Below, piece by piece: positions 8,477 through 64,000 of a stretch of 64,000 nt of DNA; position 1 is the stretch's first letter; every line of letters begins with the position of its first letter. The notes under the pieces were generated by a model. That model saw only the letters and a program-made list of their open reading frames with translations. It had not been told where the DNA came from and did not search any database. A program made the position numbers and the translations under genes. Origin of the DNA: an uncultured virus (IMG/VR IMGVR_UViG_3300032327_000191) (taxonomy: Duplodnaviria; Heunggongvirae; Uroviricota; Caudoviricetes); IMG/VR virus record IMGVR_UViG_3300032327_000191; one strand, given 5' to 3'.

Positions 8477-8506
8477 GTGTCGTTTACTGTTATCAGATAA
8501 CTAGTC
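8477..8506. repeat. Palindromic site GTTATCAGATAAC, copy 1, at the convergent strand junction
   Basis: gtgtcgtttACTGTTATCAGATAACtagtc; near-identical copy at 9138-9166. Confidence 0.7.
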
Positions 8507-10003
8507 TTCGATGGATTGGCGGATAATCGTGGTAGTTTGTTCTTCGTTTAGAGGCTGTTCCATCTCTCTCAGAGCCGTAGCCCTATCACCGAAAATGGCA
8601 CTCAACACTCCACCAGAGGACTGGCGTTCAGCAGTGATGCGAATGAACTCTTTGTTCTCTTCCAACTCTTTTACATTCTTGACTAACTTGAACAATCTAT
8701 CCATCTCTTGGGACACATTGGGGTCAGCATACCCGCCGTTCAATTCCTCTTGGAAGCGCATAAATGCTACTCTTTGCCCCTGCATTTCAATGACCGCAGT
8801 AAGCAGAGCCTTCAATTGTTCTTTGGTCCGAACCTCTACTGGCAAGTTAAACGCACAGGTCGTATCAGGCTTGAAAGCAGGGCAATTGGAAGCCACAAAA
8901 CAGGTGTTGCAATTGCGCAAAGACACCCCATTGGACTGCACCACAGGGGCGTCTCTAAGCACCTCATTGCCAGCGTCATCTACGTCTACAATGGTCTTCA
9001 TTGAGTACCCGAAAACAGGCAACGGAGTGACCTCTGAGGGGTCTCTAGGGGTCACTTCTGAGGCTTCATGTTTCCGCATCTCAGACCCACTGTTATTAGA
9101 AGACCCTACCCCTAATTCCATCAAACCGCTGTATAGGGTGTCATCACTGTTATCAGATAACAAGTCATCTTTGCCACCTTTGAGTACACGTAAGTCTGGT
9201 TTATCTTTATCCATTGACCTCTCCAACTGTAAAAATGACCAGATAGCAACCCGTGTAGATTCCAAAGTGTCATCCGCAACAAACAAATCAAAGTCTAATC
9301 CAGCAGACAGCACTTGCGCTCGGTATCTCGGTCGAGCCTGTGCCTTCATCTTCTTTGGATACCGCATGAGTTTCATGCCATCCCAGATGATTGTCTCGCC
9401 TCTACGCATGGGGGAAATCCAAGCGAGTGTAGATGCAGTAGCAAATGGAATCTGGCGCAGGTTGTCGGGTTTAGCAGTAGCAAGTGCATGGAAAGCAACA
9501 CCATGCTTCTGAGCCAGAGAGCGAGTAACCGTAGCAAGGTTAGTCACAGACTCTATAGTCTCGTAAGGGATAGCAACGTTAGCATAATCAGAAGCCCATC
9601 GTTGCAAGAGCATCTGCCCGTAAGACTCTCGCCAGACTACCCAGAGCTTAGGGTCATTCTCGTAAGCAGCTCGGTTCTGCTGAATAGCTGGAAGCCCGAG
9701 CACCTGACTGTCGAACTCCACCCAGCCCTCGATGCGGTCGTAGTTGATAGCGATGAAGTCCTCGTAGTCCGCAGCGTAATCCTCCAGTTCCTGACGAGAC
9801 AAGTTAGCTTTATCAGCTTGGACAGCTCCAGAGTCTACCCATACTTTCATGTCAGGCAGGAAGTGCTCACCAATCAAATACTCTTTGGTCTTGGGAAGCC
9901 CACGTTTGCGCAAACCCCAGTAGTTGAGCATAACGTGCTGAACACCGCTCCTCTCCAAGAGAGTGCGGTTACTTGGAATCTCTACTCCGCCAAAGATAAT
10001 CAC
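8501..10003 (-). CDS. TGT/DpdA-like TIM-barrel protein with C-terminal Cys4 and helical domain
   Basis: VWVDSGA motif, FHAL strand, S..W.SP.R.G; CNTC.....C........C. Confidence 0.6.
   Translation of the reverse strand: MIIFGGVEIPSNRTLLERSGVQHVMLNYWGLRKRGLPKTKEYLIGEHFLPDMKVWVDSGAVQADKANLSRQELEDYAADYEDFIAINYDRIEGWVEFDSQVLGLPAIQQNRAAYENDPKLWVVWRESYGQMLLQRWASDYANVAIPYETIESVTNLATVTRSLAQKHGVAFHALATAKPDNLRQIPFATASTLAWISPMRRGETIIWDGMKLMRYPKKMKAQARPRYRAQVLSAGLDFDLFVADDTLESTRVAIWSFLQLERSMDKDKPDLRVLKGGKDDLLSDNSDDTLYSGLMELGVGSSNNSGSEMRKHEASEVTPRDPSEVTPLPVFGYSMKTIVDVDDAGNEVLRDAPVVQSNGVSLRNCNTCFVASNCPAFKPDTTCAFNLPVEVRTKEQLKALLTAVIEMQGQRVAFMRFQEELNGGYADPNVSQEMDRLFKLVKNVKELEENKEFIRITAERQSSGGVLSAIFGDRATALREMEQPLNEEQTTTIIRQSIED
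9138..9166. repeat. Palindromic site TGTTATCAGATAACA, copy 2
   Basis: gtgtcatcACTGTTATCAGATAACaagtc, in the inter-domain linker of the gene. Confidence 0.7.
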
Positions 10004-51938: not shown

Positions 51939-52616
51939 TTACCGAATGACCTGCGGGCGAAGAGTCTTCTTTGCCTTTGCAGTAGCAGCCTTAGTACCGG
52001 CTGAGGTAGAAGCTGCATCAAAGTTTGGTGCGCTTTCAGTCAGTGACGGTGCCCAGTTGACGTCGAAGCCTTCGTGAACAATGTTCATCTGCTCAACAAA
52101 CAGAGCGTTGTCACCTGCGTTCAAGTCAGAATACGCCACGGAGGTAACCCACGCGTTGTAAATGTTGAACCGCATTGCAACGTGGTCGGCATTTGTTGTT
52201 TGCGTTGGGTCAGCAGGGTTAGCACCAGCAATTGGGTGGCTAAGAACCTGAATCTCGATGTCACAACGGAAGTCCGACAGCGAACCACTGCTTCCCGAAG
52301 CCTGAACCGTACGGAACAGGCGCTTCATCCAGTCCCAGTTCTGCGTGGTGCCAAGGGTGACGCCGCGCTGGAACTGAACCGGGGAGAACGTGGTCTGTCC
52401 CGGAATCTGGTGAACAGTGGTGTTGTAGCCACCCTCACGATACGGGATGCTGTCGGTGGTAACACCGAGACCCGTAACAGAGGTGAACCCAAGCGCGTTG
52501 CCTCCCATGCGGAAGTCAAGCACCGTGGGGTCAAACGGCTTGAACAAGACTAGGAATCGAAAGTTCCTAATCGGGTCGGTCGTAAGGTTTGACCGGTTGT
52601 TGATAATGGTTGGCAT
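51939..52616 (-). CDS. Tail tube protein (T4 gp19-like)
   Basis: DP.RNFRF; YREGG; RG; AW......LNA; HEG. Confidence 0.93.
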   Translation of the reverse strand: MPTIINNRSNLTTDPIRNFRFLVLFKPFDPTVLDFRMGGNALGFTSVTGLGVTTDSIPYREGGYNTTVHQIPGQTTFSPVQFQRGVTLGTTQNWDWMKRLFRTVQASGSSGSLSDFRCDIEIQVLSHPIAGANPADPTQTTNADHVAMRFNIYNAWVTSVAYSDLNAGDNALFVEQMNIVHEGFDVNWAPSLTESAPNFDAASTSAGTKAATAKAKKTLRPQVIR

Positions 52617-52635: not shown

Positions 52636-54447
52636 TTAGTTTGCAGTCTTTTGGCTGAGCGTGATGACTACGAATTCAGCCGGGTACTCAAGCGAGACAC
52701 CGACCTCGATGTGTACCTCGCCATTGGCGATGGTTTCAAACGGGTTGTTCTCAGAGTCACACTTGACGTAGTAAGCCTCGTCCGGCGTTGTTCCTGCAAG
52801 ACCGCCGTTGTTGCTGTACGTGTTCAAGAACACTGAGATTGCCGTACGAAGCTGCGACCAAAGACGCTCATCGTTGTTTTCAAACAACGCAAAACGCGTA
52901 ATCTCTTTAAGGCTTTGCTTCAAATAGATGAGCGAACGACGCATCGAAACGTAGCGGTTAGCCGTACCATCCTGCTTCAGGGTGCGAGCACCCATGACCA
53001 CAACTCCCGCACCCGGAATATCGCGGATTGCGTTAATCGGGGAGGAAGCAGAGTTTAGCAAGTCAAGGTCGCTGTCGCTGAGACGACGTTCCGTCGTAAC
53101 AACTCCGCCAAGCTCGGCACGAAGACCAGCAGGAGACTTGAACGGACCAAAATCTCGGTCAGTTGACAAGTAAAGACCAGCAACAGCACCAGCAGGACCG
53201 CATTTACGAATCGAACCAGCATTGCGTCCCAACGGGTCAGCAATGTAGATGTTCGGGTAGTAAACAGCGGCGTAGCTGGAGTTTTGCAACCCTTCTGCAT
53301 AAGCCAATGCGGTTCCGGAAGTAGAGCTAGTACCGACAGCTAAGTCCGGTGCAGTTTCCAAAACGGCAAACCCGTTGTGTGCCTCAGCCCAAGCGGTAAG
53401 AGCATCGTGAACCGTTGAGTATCCCGCTGCAATGCTTCGGAATATTTCCGGAGCAAAAATAACGAGAGGAGTATCAATGGTGTTGAGGTTTGCAAGAGAA
53501 GCAACGTAATCTGATGCAATCGGGGATGAAGAGGGCAACCCCGTGACGCTTCCACCCGAAGTGTAGCTTGCAAGGGAAGCTGTATTTGCAACCGTAAAAG
53601 TGAACGGTGATGCCGTTGTAATTGCGGTGATAACCGCATTAGCTACGTTATACCCAGTTGGCGTAATTCCCGTAACAGTAGCCAAGTACCCTACTTGGAA
53701 ATTGTGTGCAGCAGAAGTGGTGTAAACCACAGTGCTTCCATTGCTCACTGCTCCAGTAATCGTGCTAGTTGAGGAACTTCCACCACCACCATTGCTACCA
53801 CCGGACAAAACAAGAACCGTAGGTGAGGTACTTGCGGGGTCCTGAGCCGTTGGGAATAAAGCGTGCGTGTTATCAGTAATGGCTACTGAAACATACTGTG
53901 ACTGAAGGTTCACTGCCGTAACAATGTAGTCTCCAGAGTTAACGTCATTGAACACGATGTTGTTGAATTGCTCAACAAGTACGTCATCCGTAACGTTCTG
54001 ACCGGTGTTACCACCCGTAGTTGTCTCTTTGTAAACAAGCATGTTGAAATAGGTTGCACCCTGATTCGACGAGGTGAACACAACACGGAGGTCGTTTCCA
54101 CCAACACCGGGGTCGAGAGCAGTTACCGTACCAAGGTTACCCGTCGTGCTTGCCGGGATAGAGACCGTTGCTTTTGTAGCGTTACTGCTCAGTACGCGCT
54201 GGACATAAAGCTGTGAACCACCGCTCTTAAAGAACTGACCGACGCCAAACGTAGCGGGGTAAGCGGCGTTGTACCCACCAAATACTTGGGTAAACTGGTA
54301 CCACGAGTTCACGAGAACTGGGGTAACTGGACCCTGCGCAAATTGTCCGACAGCGCAACCGATAGCCTCGGTTCCACCAGCCGCAGTAATGGGCGCAGGA
54401 AGAAGGCGTTCTGATACATAAACGCCGGGACGACCGTAAGCCATCAT
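52636..54447 (-). CDS. Tail sheath protein
   Basis: RPGVYV.E; FF..GG; YYP; GARTL; FE.ND; PAEFV. Confidence 0.95.
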   Translation of the reverse strand: MMAYGRPGVYVSERLLPAPITAAGGTEAIGCAVGQFAQGPVTPVLVNSWYQFTQVFGGYNAAYPATFGVGQFFKSGGSQLYVQRVLSSNATKATVSIPASTTGNLGTVTALDPGVGGNDLRVVFTSSNQGATYFNMLVYKETTTGGNTGQNVTDDVLVEQFNNIVFNDVNSGDYIVTAVNLQSQYVSVAITDNTHALFPTAQDPASTSPTVLVLSGGSNGGGGSSSTSTITGAVSNGSTVVYTTSAAHNFQVGYLATVTGITPTGYNVANAVITAITTASPFTFTVANTASLASYTSGGSVTGLPSSSPIASDYVASLANLNTIDTPLVIFAPEIFRSIAAGYSTVHDALTAWAEAHNGFAVLETAPDLAVGTSSTSGTALAYAEGLQNSSYAAVYYPNIYIADPLGRNAGSIRKCGPAGAVAGLYLSTDRDFGPFKSPAGLRAELGGVVTTERRLSDSDLDLLNSASSPINAIRDIPGAGVVVMGARTLKQDGTANRYVSMRRSLIYLKQSLKEITRFALFENNDERLWSQLRTAISVFLNTYSNNGGLAGTTPDEAYYVKCDSENNPFETIANGEVHIEVGVSLEYPAEFVVITLSQKTAN

Positions 54448-54485: not shown

Positions 54486-55136
54486 TTATTGCGTAATAGT
54501 AAAGTTTGGAACTGGAGTAAAGTAAGGGTCGCTTGGACGCCCTCCTTGTTCCACAACCAAAGGTGGGGTATTGATTTTTACCGATAGAACTTCGTAAAGT
54601 TCTGTTAGTTTTCCTTGCACGACCTCCGAGGAAACCCGTACTGTTATTGCGTTTACGTACAAGCGCTTTGCTTGTTCGGTGACATCACGCTTTGTGACAT
54701 CCATGACATCCAATCGGCGGATTGTTCCATCATCCGTTTCAAGGTAGCCAAATCTGAGAGGGAACTTCGTCGTGAGCAACTGAGCAACAATTGCCCGGTC
54801 ATGACGCGGGTGGCGAGCATAACTAGTGATTTGATAGTCAATGTTTACTGGGATAGGAAGGTTGGTAATAAACCCAACTACAGATGGGGAAGAGGGCGTA
54901 TGAGGGATGTAGGGCGCAGACGTCAATCCTCGGTGTTCCCGAGACGTATCCCGTTGAACATCAATCATGTCAATTGTGATGTATGGGTAAGACTGGTTAC
55001 GGATTTCTTGGTCTGGCTGTCCGTACCATACACCCACAGTTCGTGTGGCAACTTCCCCGTTGGACTTTTGGTCTTCAACCGTCATGCCTTGAAGTTTTTC
55101 ACGCAACGCTTTGTCTTCAGAAAGAAGGAATGTCAT
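54486..55136 (-). CDS. Tail terminator/completion protein
   Basis: YP.ITID; P....YQI; immediately upstream of sheath. Confidence 0.65.
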   Translation of the reverse strand: MTFLLSEDKALREKLQGMTVEDQKSNGEVATRTVGVWYGQPDQEIRNQSYPYITIDMIDVQRDTSREHRGLTSAPYIPHTPSSPSVVGFITNLPIPVNIDYQITSYARHPRHDRAIVAQLLTTKFPLRFGYLETDDGTIRRLDVMDVTKRDVTEQAKRLYVNAITVRVSSEVVQGKLTELYEVLSVKINTPPLVVEQGGRPSDPYFTPVPNFTITQ

Positions 55137-55432
55137 TTCTTTCCTCCCCGAAGTGCGCGACTAACAACCCGTCTGGATGCCTCGCGGTCATTGTTCAACT
55201 TGCGAATGACAGCAGTAGGTCGGCTGTGCTCAGTTCCAAACTCATGCTTGAAAACTTGCTCGGCGTAATCAGGGTGAACGTGTACGCCCATCTTCTGGTC
55301 TTTGTACTCGACGCGAATGTTGTTGACAACATCCTTGTCCCAACCATTTGACAAAGCGCGGTTGCGCAACTCAGACGTCAGTTCCTGAGCAGTCTGGTGC
55401 TTAAGATTGTGAATGAACTTTGCAATACTCAT
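55133..55432 (-). CDS. Neck/tail completion protein
   Basis: E.GT...P motif; position. Confidence 0.6.
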   Translation of the reverse strand: MSIAKFIHNLKHQTAQELTSELRNRALSNGWDKDVVNNIRVEYKDQKMGVHVHPDYAEQVFKHEFGTEHSRPTAVIRKLNNDREASRRVVSRALRGGKK

Positions 55433-55562
55433 CGGGTCACCTCAAGCGGAATGGGCGCATGCGACGTACGCATGGCAAGTACTGATACAGCATTCATTCC
55501 GCAAAATCCCCTAAAGAGGCGCAAAACCGGCGAACCGGGTAGGCTCCGCACGGATACCTACA
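55433..55562 (-). ncRNA. Candidate structured RNA leader
   Basis: About 130-nt intergenic region with hairpins and an 8-bp closed multi-way junction. Confidence 0.5.
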
Positions 55563-55578
55563 CTTCTAGGATAGAGAA

Positions 55579-55601
55579 ATGCCCCGCATTTAGCGGGGCA
55601 T
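55579..55601 (-). terminator. Intrinsic terminator ATGCCCCGC-N5-GCGGGGCAT
   Basis: 9-bp stem plus T-rich tail after the Lys-rich operon. Confidence 0.75.
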
Positions 55602-55618: not shown

Positions 55619-55819
55619 TTACTTCTTGCCAGACTTAATCTTCTTAGCAAGAGCATTGTCTTTCTTGGTGTCCTGCGCCTTGGTAAGTTTGGTGTTCTTA
55701 TCCATCTTGGCGTCAGCCTTTTCAAACTTTGCCTTTTGAGCAGGAGTCATGCCCTTCATGGTCTTGGCATCCTGCTTCTTGTCAGCAGCAGTTCCAATGT
55801 ACTTTTTTGCGGTAGCCAT
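55619..55819 (-). CDS. Lys-rich basic microprotein
   Basis: TAATG coupling. Confidence 0.75.
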   Translation of the reverse strand: MATAKKYIGTAADKKQDAKTMKGMTPAQKAKFEKADAKMDKNTKLTKAQDTKKDNALAKKIKSGKK

Positions 55820-55986
55820 TACTTGCTCTTTTCTTTTTTCATTTTTGCAGCGGTGATTACATCTCCACGAGTAATCTTGGTCTTGTCGCCGTACATTGCG
55901 GCAAGCTTTGCGTTCTTTCCTTTAGGTGCATCTTTCTTTGCACGCGCTTTACAAGCGGCGCATTTGCCGCACTTACACATTGCCAT
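55819..55986 (-). CDS. Lys-rich microprotein with CKCGKCAAC
   Basis: Read manually, 55 aa; TAATG on both sides. Confidence 0.7.
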   Translation of the reverse strand: MAMCKCGKCAACKARAKKDAPKGKNAKLAAMYGDKTKITRGDVITAAKMKKEKSK

Positions 55987-56144
55987 TAGTTTTCCTTCTT
56001 CTTAATTGGACGGACTCGACGGAGTCCGGTTCGTGCTAAAACGCCTTTCTCAGCACCAGTGTTTGCCCGCTGCTTTGAGGTCATAGATGTTCTAGACAAT
56101 TTGTCAACCACTTTTACTGTGGTCTTCTTTTTCTTTTCAGCCAT
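55986..56144 (-). CDS. Lys/Arg-rich microprotein (MAEKKKK...)
   Basis: ATG 56144; coupled. Confidence 0.7.
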   Translation of the reverse strand: MAEKKKKTTVKVVDKLSRTSMTSKQRANTGAEKGVLARTGLRRVRPIKKKEN

Positions 56145-56448
56145 TCTTTTTACCTTCGTTTGCTTTACGAATAGCAGCAGCCTTTTTCTTTGCGTCTGCT
56201 TTGCTGGACGCTCCCCATGCCTGAAGCGAGAGGAGAAGTCGAGTAGGTTCGCCGTTAGGCTTGCGTTCTGGTCCGGGCATTCCGCCCATACGAGCAAGGA
56301 ACGCGGCACGACGAGGGTTGTTACCCGACTTAACGGGAGCCTTTAGGTCAGAGCCGGGGTGTGCCTTTTCGTATGACTTGCGCCCCTTCTCGTTGAGACC
56401 GCCCTTGGCGTTCTTACCGTCTTTACGTTGCCACGCTTCACTAGCCAT
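56137..56448 (-). CDS. Basic protein, DUF6321-like (AWQRK.GK...GGLN.KGR)
   Basis: Motif recognition; AGGAG RBS. Confidence 0.8.
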   Translation of the reverse strand: MASEAWQRKDGKNAKGGLNEKGRKSYEKAHPGSDLKAPVKSGNNPRRAAFLARMGGMPGPERKPNGEPTRLLLSLQAWGASSKADAKKKAAAIRKANEGKKNG

Positions 56449-56699
56449 TAGCTGCTCCTTCTGTATGCTGCGGTTTTTTTGGCAATCTTCTTTGGTTGAG
56501 GGGCAACTTGCTTTCCCGCTTTGCCTCCATCGCCTTTAGCTTTTGCGCGGTTAGTTGCGGCTTTTTCCGCTGGGGTTAATGCCGACCAAGCTTTCTCGGG
56601 AAGATAGCGTTTCTTGCCCTTAGAGGGAGTACCGTCTGAGGTGGTCCACTTTTCCTTTGTCCACTTATCCAGTGACTTTTGAGGGGCTGCCTTAGCCAT
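56448..56699 (-). CDS. Basic protein, DUF5872-like C-half (Q.SL..WT.EKW.T...RYLP)
   Basis: Motif recognition; coupled. Confidence 0.8.
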   Translation of the reverse strand: MAKAAPQKSLDKWTKEKWTTSDGTPSKGKKRYLPEKAWSALTPAEKAATNRAKAKGDGGKAGKQVAPQPKKIAKKTAAYRRSS

Positions 56700-56887
56700 T
56701 ACTTGTATCCACCGCCAGCTTTCTTGTACTCCAAAGCCAGCAGTTGAGCTTTACGGGCAGACCACTCTCCGGGGTCTCCGCCCTTGGTTCCTGCTTTAAT
56801 CTGCTTAAACAGACGTTCTCGAAGAGCGGGCTTGGTGTAATTACCTGCCTCATTTACACGAGACTTGGTCTTCTTTTTCTCAGCCAT
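56699..56887 (-). CDS. Basic protein, DUF5872-like N-half (YTKP.LR...GG.PG.WSARKAQ...YK..GGGY)
   Basis: Motif recognition; coupled. Confidence 0.8.
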   Translation of the reverse strand: MAEKKKTKSRVNEAGNYTKPALRERLFKQIKAGTKGGDPGEWSARKAQLLALEYKKAGGGYK

Positions 56888-57103
56888 TTACTTAACCTTC
56901 GGATGTTCTTTGTGAAACTTCTTGGTGTCTTTGACACCCTGATTCACAGTCTTAGCTCCAGACAACTTTGTCAGGTTCATTTGTTCTTTTTTACCGGACT
57001 TGCTGTTTTGGGTAACAATAATGTCGCCTTTATTTCCGACACCTTTGTCTGTCGTTTTCTTAGTCACGGTGTGCTTCCTGCCACCAGCAGTTATCTTTGT
57101 CAT
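56888..57103 (-). CDS. Lys/Thr-rich basic microprotein
   Basis: Abuts both neighbours. Confidence 0.7.
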   Translation of the reverse strand: MTKITAGGRKHTVTKKTTDKGVGNKGDIIVTQNSKSGKKEQMNLTKLSGAKTVNQGVKDTKKFHKEHPKVK

Positions 57104-57145
57104 TTACTTCTTGCCTTTACCGCAAGTGCAATTTCCACCACACAT
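57104..57145 (-). CDS. 13-aa peptide MCGGNCTCGKGKK
   Basis: TAATG overlap upstream; TAA directly followed by next ATG. Confidence 0.55.
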   Translation of the reverse strand: MCGGNCTCGKGKK

Positions 57146-57438
57146 TATTTTTTATGCGCCTTTCCGCGTCGTTCATCTTCTTTAGCTACATTCTTACTAT
57201 GAGACATGGCTTGAAGGTTGCTAAGTGTGTCGTGACCTTTACGACCACCATTATCCTTGTGGTCTACGTCTGTGTCTCGACTAAGGTGAGTGTGGTGCGC
57301 GTCCTCGTAATCCACACGGGCTTTGTTGTGTGATGTGGTTACCCATTTACCGCCTACCTTTTTCTTGTAGACGTAGATAGGGCGACCACCGTTTTCTTTA
57401 GACCCCTTGTAGGGACCGAACTTCTTCCATTCAGCCAT
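57145..57438 (-). CDS. Basic HNH-motif protein
   Basis: DVDHKDN....D..SNL.......N. Confidence 0.75.
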   Translation of the reverse strand: MAEWKKFGPYKGSKENGGRPIYVYKKKVGGKWVTTSHNKARVDYEDAHHTHLSRDTDVDHKDNGGRKGHDTLSNLQAMSHSKNVAKEDERRGKAHKK

Positions 57439-57560
57439 TACTTTTTCTCTGCTTTCTCTGGAAGGTCCTCTGGGTGCTCGGTTTTATCTGCCCACTCCTG
57501 AGCCATCTCAGGGTGATTGGCAAACATAAAGCGCATTTGAGCGAGTGACTTGAACGGCAT
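57438..57560 (-). CDS. 40-aa protein MPFKS.AQ.RFM.A..PE.A.EW
   Basis: Read manually; coupled; motif recognised from other phages. Confidence 0.7.
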   Translation of the reverse strand: MPFKSLAQMRFMFANHPEMAQEWADKTEHPEDLPEKAEKK

Positions 57561-57561
57561 T

Positions 57562-57954
57562 TTAGTTTTGCGCCATAATCACCCAGTTAGTTCCGTTACT
57601 AACTAGGAGTGTCCATTTACCGGCTGTGTTAGCAGAGAAAAGAGTTGCAGCAGCAGTGTTAGTTGCGAGTGGGACCACGTTGGAAGAAGCTGAGGTCACT
57701 GCACCTGTATTGATTGTTTTAAAATTTAGAGTGCGACCGGGGTACGCTGAAGCAGTCGGAAGTGTAACTGAGATGCTTGAAGCAGAGTTAAAGATAACGA
57801 ACACGCTGGTTTCTGGAACAGTAAACGGAGAAGTTGTAACTGGCGTAGTGACATTAGCTACAGCCAAAGCAGTGTTTTTGTTCAAATAGTCAAGCGCGGT
57901 GTTTAGGGTGTCCCCCCAATTAGACTGACCGACGATAGGTTTTACAAGTGCCAT
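57562..57954 (-). CDS. Virion structural protein (head fiber/decoration-like)
   Basis: WG..LN; TLP.A; S.GTNW. Confidence 0.7.
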   Translation of the reverse strand: MALVKPIVGQSNWGDTLNTALDYLNKNTALAVANVTTPVTTSPFTVPETSVFVIFNSASSISVTLPTASAYPGRTLNFKTINTGAVTSASSNVVPLATNTAAATLFSANTAGKWTLLVSNGTNWVIMAQN

Positions 57955-57956
57955 TA

Positions 57957-58574
57957 TTACTCTCCATATTTTCCAGAGCCGTAGTCACCGGCTCCATAGA
58001 TTACTAAACGAGGCTCTTCTTTAACTGGAAGAGCAAACGTAGAGAACTGCGGGTCATTGACAAGTTCTTCAGGATTAACTTGGTTGCAGTCGATGGTTAC
58101 TACCGCGTAGTTGTTGGCGAAGATACCGCGAGGAAGAACTCGGGTAGGAACAAAGACCTCACCCCGGTACACAATGCGGTCTTTGATGTGGTCGCTAGGA
58201 TTTGCAAGCACGTCTGGAATAAGGCGTTGAATCTCTCCAACGTTGACCACGAGTCGCAACGTATCTGATACGTAGTAACCGCGCTCGTTCATTACGTTTG
58301 TGGAACGCATGAGTTGAGCCATAATTACGGGAAGCTTAAAGGGCTTAGTCCAACGACGACCCTTCTTAACTCCTGCATCAGTAACCCCCGAGTTAGACAC
58401 GTCATAGATGTCGTCTACAACGAGAGAGTAATTTTCCTCAAGGTACACCTCAGACCACTGCCACCAGTCAACCTCTTGACCAACAGTTTGACCGAGTTCT
58501 TCGGCAATGCCTTCATACATTGACTTTGATTCATAGTCAATGTTGAACCGACCCTGTACTAACTGACCTCTCAT
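57957..58574 (-). CDS. Head closure/adaptor protein
   Basis: Position; DRI.Y.G.VF motif. Confidence 0.6.
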   Translation of the reverse strand: MRGQLVQGRFNIDYESKSMYEGIAEELGQTVGQEVDWWQWSEVYLEENYSLVVDDIYDVSNSGVTDAGVKKGRRWTKPFKLPVIMAQLMRSTNVMNERGYYVSDTLRLVVNVGEIQRLIPDVLANPSDHIKDRIVYRGEVFVPTRVLPRGIFANNYAVVTIDCNQVNPEELVNDPQFSTFALPVKEEPRLVIYGAGDYGSGKYGE

Positions 58575-63263: not shown

Positions 63264-64000
63264 CTAGTTCGAGTAGACCTTGACGATTGCTTGGTCAGTG
63301 ATGACACCGAGACCCCAGATGGAGTACCATGCGAGAGCGTGCTCACGACCGAAGTCGAGAACGCCACCGTCGCGCAGTTCAACCGGGAGGCTGATGGCGT
63401 GACCAAATGCGTTGTCACCAATCATGATGGACTCGTAGACATCAGCCGTCAGAGTCGTCGTGTCGGTGGGGTAGGCAGCCGTCGAACCAGCGTCGGAAGC
63501 CTCAGGGTTTCCACCACCACCGGGGTAGGTGTTAGCCTTGACCGGAACCGAGCCAGCGTTAGCGGGAGCACCAACCTGCGAGGTGTAGTTCGTAACCGTC
63601 GCGCCGCTAGCGAACTTGTTCACCTGCGTGGTCTCGATGAACACGACGTCGTAGAGACGACCGATTTCACCGAGCATGAAGTTACCCGGAGCAGCGTACT
63701 TCGTAACTTCGATGAACTCAGGGTTCGAGCGAAGGTCACGCGACTGCTTGGGGTGGATGAACTGCACGTAGGTCTCACCAATGCGAGGGATGTTCTTCTG
63801 CGCAAGCGTAAGCGCAGCATCCTTGATGGCACCCGTGGTGAGCTTGTACTTACCAGCGTTCGTACCCGAACCAACGGAAGTGTTCGAACCCGACACTGCG
63901 GTAGCGGCGGTACCTTCCTGATACAGGTTGAAGTTGGTAGCACCGTCGTACGCCGAGCGGTCGTAACCGAAGACAGCCGAGGTAGCAGCACCGAGGGTGT
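63264..64000 (-). CDS. Major capsid protein (N4 gp56-like), 5' end outside window
   Basis: Y..FIHP.Q..DL; GEIG....V.FIET; DFGR...LAWY..WG. Confidence 0.92.
   Translation of the reverse strand, partial: TLGAATSAVFGYDRSAYDGATNFNLYQEGTAATAVSGSNTSVGSGTNAGKYKLTTGAIKDAALTLAQKNIPRIGETYVQFIHPKQSRDLRSNPEFIEVTKYAAPGNFMLGEIGRLYDVVFIETTQVNKFASGATVTNYTSQVGAPANAGSVPVKANTYPGGGGNPEASDAGSTAAYPTDTTTLTADVYESIMIGDNAFGHAISLPVELRDGGVLDFGREHALAWYSIWGLGVITDQAIVKVYSN

Follow-up and report, generated by a model that had tools for sequence, protein, structure and literature searches.

Ten small, coupled and mostly lysine-rich genes of an uncultured Caudoviricetes virus: solo polyvalent-protein modules similar to an internal-protein locus

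Results

The locus

This study concerns a cassette of ten small genes (o1 to o10) on the minus strand of DNA from an uncultured aquatic myophage of the Caudoviricetes (IMG/VR record IMGVR_UViG_3300032327_000191), analysed as one stretch of 64,000 nucleotides (nt) that is called the window throughout. Ten open reading frames (ORFs) with ATG starts, coding for 13-103 amino acids (aa), tile 1.9 kb between the head and the tail genes (Table 1). The cassette is real and conserved, and can be described as polyvalent-protein modules in solo form, at a locus that resembles one for internal proteins. An initial annotation, made from the letters of the DNA, had described the ten ORFs, their near-zero gaps, a strong terminator at their end and their position between head and tail genes, and all of these features were recovered, with the capsid gene upstream and the sheath and tube genes downstream of the cassette.

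Six of the nine junctions within the cassette are one-base TAATG overlaps of stop and start codons, two are TAAATG junctions with zero gap, and one (o7/o8) is an overlap of 8 nt. The gap between the upstream 130-aa gene and o1 is likewise only 1 nt, and no sigma-70-like promoter site was found between these two genes on the minus strand. Because of the stop-start overlaps and the 1-nt gap, the cassette is regarded as the coupled tail end of a head/neck operon, and not as an operon by itself. A single strong terminator-like hairpin closes it and is maintained in relatives: six of its nine base pairs are kept through two-sided, compensatory changes in at least one of seven related sequences.

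In the direction of transcription, the minus strand of the window carries a Phage_capsid_3 gene, fibre- or decoration-like genes (Mtd_N, fn3), the 205-aa and 130-aa genes, the ten ORFs and the hairpin, followed by the 99-aa and 216-aa genes, the sheath, the tube, baseplate and fibre genes, and then replication genes. The capsid gene runs past the window end, so that portal and terminase genes lie outside the view.

Table 1. Coordinates of the cassette genes and of other features of the window discussed in the text.
Feature	Position	Strand	Description
o1	57438-57560	-	40 aa; isoelectric point (pI) 5.5, sole acidic member; N-terminal 'MPFKS..Q..FMFANHPEMA' module
o2	57145-57438	-	97 aa; putative mini HNH_3-type nuclease-like protein; D59-H60 ... 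N74 ... N83 motif intact
o3	57104-57145	-	13 aa; Cys-cluster micro-ORF with three Cys
o4	56888-57103	-	71 aa; 24% Lys
o5	56699-56887	-	62 aa; first of the obligate o5-o6 pair; phrog_17747, E 7e-34
o6	56448-56699	-	83 aa; second of the o5-o6 pair; phrog_14910, E 2e-31
o7	56137-56448	-	103 aa; solo DUF6321 domain; Pfam PF19846, E 5.9e-23
o8	55986-56144	-	52 aa; pI 11.5; ATG start at 56144
o9	55819-55986	-	55 aa; N-terminal CxCxxCxxC cluster, then 'YGDKxKITRGDVI' tail
o10	55619-55819	-	66 aa; 30% Lys; final cassette gene
Intrinsic terminator hairpin	55579-55601	-	9-bp stem with 7 G-C pairs, 5-nt loop, T-rich tail
Conserved intergenic element	55433-55578	-	probably promoter or leader of the tail operon
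Downstream anchor genes (99 aa and 216 aa)	54486-55432	-	directly upstream of the sheath gene
Upstream anchor genes (205 aa and 130 aa)	57562-58574	-	2-nt and 1-nt gaps
Tail sheath gene	52636-54447	-	family match
Tail tube gene	51939-52616	-	family match
Major capsid gene	63264-64000, beyond window end	-	Pfam Phage_capsid_3, E 2.3e-5
DpdA-like protein gene	8501-10003	-	500 aa; match to phrog_887

The ten ORFs are real genes

The predominance of lysine-rich, basic proteins that the initial annotation had noted is pronounced: all the proteins except o1 are basic, with pI values of 9.1-11.5, and lysine makes up 20.7% of the 642 cassette residues versus 4.0% of 7200 residues in 13 large proteins of the window. 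None of the 42 other window ORFs of up to 110 aa exceeds 10% lysine.

Rates of nonsynonymous and synonymous substitution (dN and dS) were compared with two related IMG/VR contigs, L005 (sheath 94% identical) and L006 (sheath 77% identical), with the flanking genes compared too. The eight ORFs that could be compared gave dN/dS ratios of 0.00-0.14 (o2, 0.04-0.06; o4, 0.11; o5, 0.01; o7, 0.00-0.05; o8, 0.07-0.14), and the flanking genes fall in the same range. For o3, the 42 nt are identical to those of L005, while neighbouring genes have a dS of about 0.5. Judging by these comparisons and by the junctions, the ten ORFs are real and translationally coupled late genes, and those compared are under purifying selection.

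Two of the genes required a decision on their limits. The initial annotation had stated that three members were missing from its ORF track and that one had a wrong start; in line with this, o8 is listed as a 107-aa ORF with a GTG start and o3 falls below any listing threshold. The 107-aa version of o8 was rejected, as the extension overlaps o7 in another frame and L006 keeps a start at the same MAEKKK, the ATG ORF of L005 starting five codons further upstream. I also considered o3 as the cut-off N-terminus of o4, with which it shares a frame interrupted by one TAA. ORFs of 13-19 aa that start with M-C-x-G-x-C-x-C-G-K are present, however, in eight related loci, and since some of these (among them L006, L017, L021 and L041) have no o4, this possibility was rejected and o3 is treated as an independent micro-ORF.

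The N-termini share some features. Seven of the ten cassette ORFs begin with Met-Ala (six ATGGCT, one ATGGCA), compared with 15 of the 97 other predicted genes of the window, which may be a sign of high expression or of N-terminal processing, and both o5 and o8 start with MAEKKK.

The proteins are unrelated modules

The ten proteins do not form one family but are unrelated modules. The DUF6321-like protein named in the initial annotation is o7, which matches the DUF6321 profile (PF19846) over its full length (positions 1-72 of 72) with 81.7 bits, well above the gathering cut-off of 28.5. An alignment of 58 DUF6321 sequences has 37 invariant columns. The AlphaFold2 model of o7 (predicted local distance difference test score, pLDDT, 86.1) has four helices, and its search against the PDB gave no convincing match (best Foldseek E 3.4; best VIA Z 4.4; generic helical pairs).

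The genes o5 and o6, whose PHROG matches (Table 1) are families of unknown function, behave as an obligate pair. I examined the 80 best DUF6321 loci in IMG/VR, many of them near-duplicates, and in all 16 that bear o5 it is followed by o6 within 15 nt; in L045, 32 nt separate the tblastn matches to o5 and o6. Homologues of the two are adjacent in Methylophilales phage MEP402 (where gp48-gp50 are o6-like, o5-like and DUF6321), Roseobacter phage CRP-9 (gp66, gp67) and Pelagibacter phage HTVC115P (gp43, gp44), and 1.8 kb apart in Puniceispirillum phage HMO-2011 (gp63, gp59). Natural fusions of o5 and o6 occur in two of the 120 longer o5 proteins among the matches listed (P0165 and P0131), and the AlphaFold2 model of such a fusion (pLDDT 78.9) has six helices, again with no convincing match in the PDB (best E 4.3). 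The missing PDB matches leave o7 and o5-o6 without a fold assignment, but do not show that these folds are new.

The description of o5 and o6 as adjacent DUF5872-like halves survived only as a faint resemblance. Neither protein matched Pfam DUF5872 (PF19197) at E-values up to 10, nor did the fusion P0165 at E-values up to 0.01, while the same model does match the long proteins P0045 and P0011. A profile comparison (hhalign) of 139 o5-family segments with 33 DUF5872 N-terminal segments gave a weak signal (probability 24.8%, P 7.9e-4, 39 columns), and so did a fold search of BFVD, in which proteins named DUF5872 were found at ranks 17 and 25 (E 0.26 and 1.4). The relation is thus, weakly, one of resemblance and not of membership.

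The basic HNH-motif protein was borne out at the level of its family, which has 43 representatives. While o2 itself matched no Pfam family at E-values up to 10 and a PDB sequence search with o2 alone returned nothing at E-values up to 10, 18 of the 21 sequences in an alignment of o2 with 20 relatives (37-57% identity to it) matched HNH_3 (PF13392; best E 3.8e-11). Of the catalytic His/Asn motif, H60 never varies in the family alignment, and at least 90% of the sequences keep D59, N74 and N83, all three of which o2 has. The family profile aligned to the active-site stretch of the HNH homing endonuclease I-HmuI (1u3e; E 0.021), and the o2 family shares the D-H...N...N motif with such HNH_3 enzymes. 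Unlike I-HmuI, o2 is a protein of just 97 aa without the C-terminal DNA-binding domains, and its own sequence lies below Pfam detection.

Both Cys-cluster peptides of the initial annotation were found, namely o3 and o9. Relatives of o9 with the same two parts, Cys cluster and conserved tail, occur in L005, L006, L021, L028 and L038, and none of 27 candidates was a longer form. As a separate observation, ORFs of 32-34 aa with nine Cys, resembling metallothioneins (M-C-x-K-C-G-C-x-C-K...), lie on the plus strand of several loci (L022:553, L039:6470, L040:6470, L054:2010 and L077:6294). In L054 and L077, which represent other phage backgrounds, they directly follow the DUF6321 gene, which points to a second Cys-rich microprotein family linked to DUF6321.

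Of the remaining modules, o1 matched phrog_1375 (E 1.3e-5) and has a variant of 85-86 aa in L005 and L006, while o8 and o10 have relatives in related cassettes. No family was found in Pfam or PHROGs for o3, o4, o8, o9 and o10, and a protein atlas returned only unnamed clusters for o9 and o8, with scores (0.89 and 0.81) under the trusted level. The tblastn searches of o1, o2, o4 and o9 against 50,697 phage records gave no match at E 1e-3, which is weak evidence because the queries were short and the low-complexity filter was on. In the literature, the result listing of a full-text search named DUF5872 and not DUF6321, and searches on Syn9 gp114 and on small lysine-rich phage capsid proteins returned nothing relevant.

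Four modules recur as domains of large proteins

Searches for longer proteins were made with DUF6321 and with the o5 domain; the counts are totals, and architectures were taken from the 120 proteins listed for each. DUF6321 occurs in 6271 metagenomic proteins of at least 182 aa. By precomputed Pfam assignments, its companions in the 120 listed proteins are DUF5872 (many), Peptidase_S78_2 (XkdF), Zeta_toxin, ART-PolyVal and DUF3626 (several), and a Pfam re-scan of eight such long proteins confirmed the companion domains. The module of o1 forms the first ~38 residues of four of these 120 proteins, and residues 25-69 of o4 match a domain in seven of them, lying 15-16 residues before DUF6321 in P0070, P0027 and P0019.

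The o5 domain was found in 1740 longer proteins at E≤1e-3 and was C-terminal in 116 of the 120 listed, behind variable and unrelated N-terminal parts. Another match is to part of a viral protein of 1022 aa in BFVD, where it bears the name ParB/Sulfiredoxin (E 6.3e-4; 68% identical over 54 columns). In the long o5 proteins whose sequences were inspected (from the set P0121-P0240), the parts are joined by a similar stretch, K-S-(R/K)-V-N-(E/A)-A-G-N-Y-T-K-P, which might mark either a boundary between domains or a site of processing.

Homology to domains of polyvalent-type proteins was thus found for o1, o4, o5 and o7, and not for o2, o3, o6, o8, o9 and o10. By their domain composition, the long proteins that bear cassette modules have the architectures of polyvalent proteins as defined by Iyer, Burroughs, Anand, de Souza and Aravind (2017; PMC5512222), who describe polypeptides of phages and conjugative elements with two to fifteen disparate domains each, predict that they are packaged and injected, and report that solo versions of their domains adjoin phage structural genes. 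The cassette is like these proteins in that o1, o4, o5 and o7 are homologous to domains of large proteins with an XkdF-type peptidase, Zeta toxin, ART-PolyVal or ParB, and in that its genes lie among late virion genes. It is unlike them in that each module is an ORF of its own with its own start and stop, without a multidomain chain and without an embedded peptidase. Solo genes make up 79 of the 80 best IMG/VR DUF6321 genes, a set that is biased towards the solo query.

The site is occupied by different modules in related phages

Among the 80 loci, 22 belong to the lineage of this phage, with the same flanking genes, and 58 lie outside it. The upstream 205-aa gene was found in 17 of the 80, the 216-aa gene in 22 and the 99-aa gene in 19. 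Both flanks are present at 15 loci (13 of the 22 lineage loci together with L006 and L032), at which the interval between neck genes, upstream of the sheath gene, measures 1.6-3.4 kb. The small ORFs in it number 7-14, of which 6-12 are basic, and lysine makes up 12-22%. These 15 loci have 12 different module orders, such as o1-o7-o2-o10, o1-o5-o6-o7-o9-o10 and o5-o6-o4-o7-o10. Synteny, which had been named as a check in the initial annotation, held for the site, where small basic ORFs are found in 15 relatives, but not for membership and order, which are not fixed.

Some regularities remain. The gene o10, or its 73-aa variant in L005 and L006, lies at or next to the cassette end in 12 of the 15 loci. 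L005 has an extra Lys-rich gene of 56 aa, and L006 is without o4, o5 and o6. In comparison with L005, dS was 0.45-0.91 inside the cassette versus 0.18-0.25 in two downstream genes, and this higher divergence suggests that the cassette has undergone mosaic exchange. The HNH gene was present in eight of the 80 loci.

DUF6321 genes adjoin virion genes, and one relative was detected in virions

DUF6321 was found in 465 deposited phage records, mostly of cyanomyoviruses, with tblastn identities of 42-76% in all and 441 given as 60-80%. Across phages of cyanobacteria, SAR11, SAR116, roseobacters and methylophiles, o7 and o5-o6 keep an identity of about 50-80%. At the 58 loci outside the lineage, several of which are near-duplicates, I classified the 74 nearest ORFs of at least 250 aa: 15 were terminase large subunits, seven major head proteins, six portal proteins, five fibre or virion proteins and three proteins of DNA metabolism, while nine matched only families of unknown function and 29 had no match. 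Head, packaging or tail proteins hence account for 33 of the 36 neighbours with an assigned function.

A virion proteome is available for relatives of o7. DUF6321 ends Syn9 gp114 according to Pfam, and the tblastn match in S-SM1 lies at the C-terminal end of SSM1_115; both proteins belong to the cluster T4-GC119 of Sullivan et al. (2010; PMC3037559). Table S8 of that article, taken from a PDF in which columns could be misread, though their order agrees with the text, assigns T4-GC119 to 'Structural protein' and records 13 peptide counts for it in the virions of S-SM1, and a supplementary spreadsheet marks the cluster as having proteomic data. The same source reports the gene as absent from S-PM2. 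Like o7, the T4-GC119 proteins have DUF6321 at their end and are encoded in a variable region beside packaging and sheath genes; the one of S-SM1 was seen in virions. Unlike o7, which is a solo gene of 103 aa flanked by other solo modules, they are composite, with a gene of 276-2985 nt in 15 cyanophage genomes (Syn9 gp114, 443 aa; SSM1_115, 495 aa).

In the cyanomyoviruses Syn9, S-P4 and S-SM1 (L096-L098), the DUF6321 protein is encoded just after the small terminase gene and T4-GC403, and is followed by petE, PTOX, gnd and zwf. T4-GC403 is a second protein detected in virions, with 60 counts, and the cyanophage cassette that holds T4-GC119 is described in the same article as possibly mobilised by an endonuclease (PMC3037559).

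Discussion

The T4 internal proteins are one of the known systems that come closest to the cassette. In phage T4, about 1000 molecules of internal proteins lie within the DNA, contact its phosphates through their lysines and are ejected together with it; one of them, IPI*, is injected and blocks a restriction enzyme, and the set varies strongly from one T-even phage to another (Rao and Black, 2010; PMC3012670). The cassette shares with IPI, IPII and IPIII that its products are small, basic and encoded among late genes, and that the set differs greatly between related phages, as at the 15 loci above with their 12 module orders. It differs in that no sequence or fold relation to the T4 proteins was found, in that the cassette is known here from its genes alone, and in that no N-terminal capsid-targeting sequence of the kind that the prohead protease removes was seen, by eye, to be shared by its members. 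The phage also differs from T4 in having a family A DNA polymerase and a DnaB-type helicase. The locus of the T4 internal proteins has been termed hyperplastic. I give about an even chance to the reading that the cassette, too, is a hyperplastic set of solo head-internal proteins, which are co-ejected with the DNA and work like the T4 internal proteins.

By this reading, the cassette proteins would be made late, together with the capsid proteins. I infer from the relatives that they would then be loaded into the procapsid, lie among the packaged DNA via lysine-phosphate contacts and leave with it at infection, so as to act in the first minutes in the host, for example by shielding the incoming DNA or by blocking host defences. 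As free-standing copies of modules that other phages fuse into large virion proteins, they probably enter the head along with the DNA, and the HNH gene may help to move the modules.

A side observation concerns the phage DNA itself. The 500-aa protein encoded elsewhere in the window (Table 1) matches phrog_887, a queuine tRNA-ribosyltransferase family that is DpdA-like (E 9.5e-57), and this match suggests that 7-deazaguanine modification is present in the phage DNA. T4 has an internal protein that is injected and shields modified DNA against a nuclease dependent on the modification.

Several points weigh against assigning the cassette to head-internal, co-ejected proteins. The support comes from relatives, in the form of fusions, neighbourhood and one cyanophage virion proteome, and none of it from this phage. 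The protein detected in S-SM1 is a 495-aa composite and not a solo 103-aa module, and the Syn9 member of T4-GC119, annotated in the genome, is given as undetected in Syn9 virions in the tables of Sullivan et al. (2010; PMC3037559). For o8, o9 and o10, the searches turned up neither a fused form nor a family. By eye, no capsid-targeting tag is shared by the N-termini beyond Met-Ala in seven of ten and a Lys-rich start, no further motif search having been made. The counts over the 80 loci overstate their independence, and accessory-gene hot spots, too, typically lie next to structural genes. As for the solo modules, tryptic mass spectrometry easily overlooks small Lys-rich proteins.

The last of the genomic points leads to the alternative that has to be taken most seriously, although I consider it somewhat doubtful: the cassette may be a permissive site in the late operon that simply carries genes for non-virion accessory proteins (nucleic-acid binders, regulators or anti-defence proteins), possibly moved about by the HNH gene, whose products would have a cytoplasmic role late in infection. 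A fixed site with freely varying membership and order is what such a hot spot would look like, and the HNH_3-type gene inside the cassette, the excess of dS over the downstream genes, which suggests mosaic exchange, the description of the cyanophage T4-GC119 cassette as possibly endonuclease-mobilised and the absence of the Syn9 homologue from the virion data (PMC3037559) agree with it. Cytoplasmic proteins are harder to reconcile with the detection of T4-GC119 in S-SM1 virions (PMC3037559), with fusion to domains typical of proteins that are predicted to be injected, and with a neighbourhood in which almost all neighbours of assigned function are head, packaging or tail proteins. As for the means of movement, the HNH gene is not a general driver, because only eight of the 80 loci hold it.

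The initial annotation had offered two further explanations, of which the first was a histone- or protamine-like DNA-condensing core or capsid-lining set, taken here as a structural core that does nothing beyond neutralising and compacting the DNA or lining the capsid. A location inside the virion in association with DNA is indeed the best-supported reading, on the evidence of relatives, but the condensing core is improbable. The charge of the proteins, their lysine content and their late-operon position would fit such a core, as would the contacts between lysines and DNA phosphates in T4 (PMC3012670). Against it, o7 and the o5-o6 fusion are predicted to adopt compact helical folds, which makes a purely protamine-like role unlikely; this evidence against disordered polycations covers three of the ten proteins (o5, o6 and o7) and not o4, o8 and o10. 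Furthermore, the invariant columns of DUF6321 and the identity of about 50-80% across phages of unrelated hosts amount to more constraint than charge alone requires, and no fixed core exists, as close relatives drop or swap members, with L006 lacking three of them. The second explanation, that the proteins are ribosomal-protein-like RNA binders that may partner the structured RNA just downstream of the cassette, found no support and is very hard to credit. The intergenic stretch does fold better than its shuffled versions (z -4.17 for the whole 193 nt), and the element at 55433-55578, with a near-invariant CTATCCT..AAG.GTAGG block and predicted helices on the minus strand, is 93.6% (L005) and 89.0% (L006) identical although synonymous sites of its neighbours have diverged. 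It occurs, however, in nine loci of this lineage only, BLAST having found no copy in the 58 other DUF6321 loci, so that the modules exist in phages without it, and no fold match in the PDB searches ties o7 or o5-o6 to RNA binding. Rfam gave no match at gathering scores, nor did a tRNA scan find anything in the whole window. The element sits after the terminator of the cassette and before the next gene, and a terminator together with a probable promoter or leader for the tail operon explains it.

Returning to head-internal, co-ejected proteins, a wider form of this reading can be put forward tentatively, as a proposal that I think is rather unlikely to hold in full. Small, folded and highly basic modules, namely DUF6321, the o5-o6 pair, the modules of o1 and o4 and the Cys-cluster microproteins, may form a pool common to aquatic phages of many lineages (myo- and podoviruses that infect cyanobacteria, SAR11, SAR116, roseobacters and methylophiles, as well as this uncultured group). 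These modules might constitute an unrecognised class of head-internal, co-ejected proteins, which occur either as a solo cassette or welded into polyvalent proteins. The target of the near-invariant DUF6321 would then be something common to the hosts, or the DNA itself, and the Cys peptides of 13-19 aa would be virion or metal-binding parts.

For annotators, the cassette is a warning that phage structural operons contain real genes of 13-55 aa which are being overlooked. It also presents the building blocks of polyvalent proteins in unfused form, so that each module can be tested individually. Few phage domains without a known role are as widespread as DUF6321 and its companion modules; if these modules are packed with the DNA and injected, the principle of the T4 internal proteins would extend to dominant phages of oceans and lakes, and the modules would be concrete candidates for factors of counter-defence or DNA protection in the first minutes of infection.

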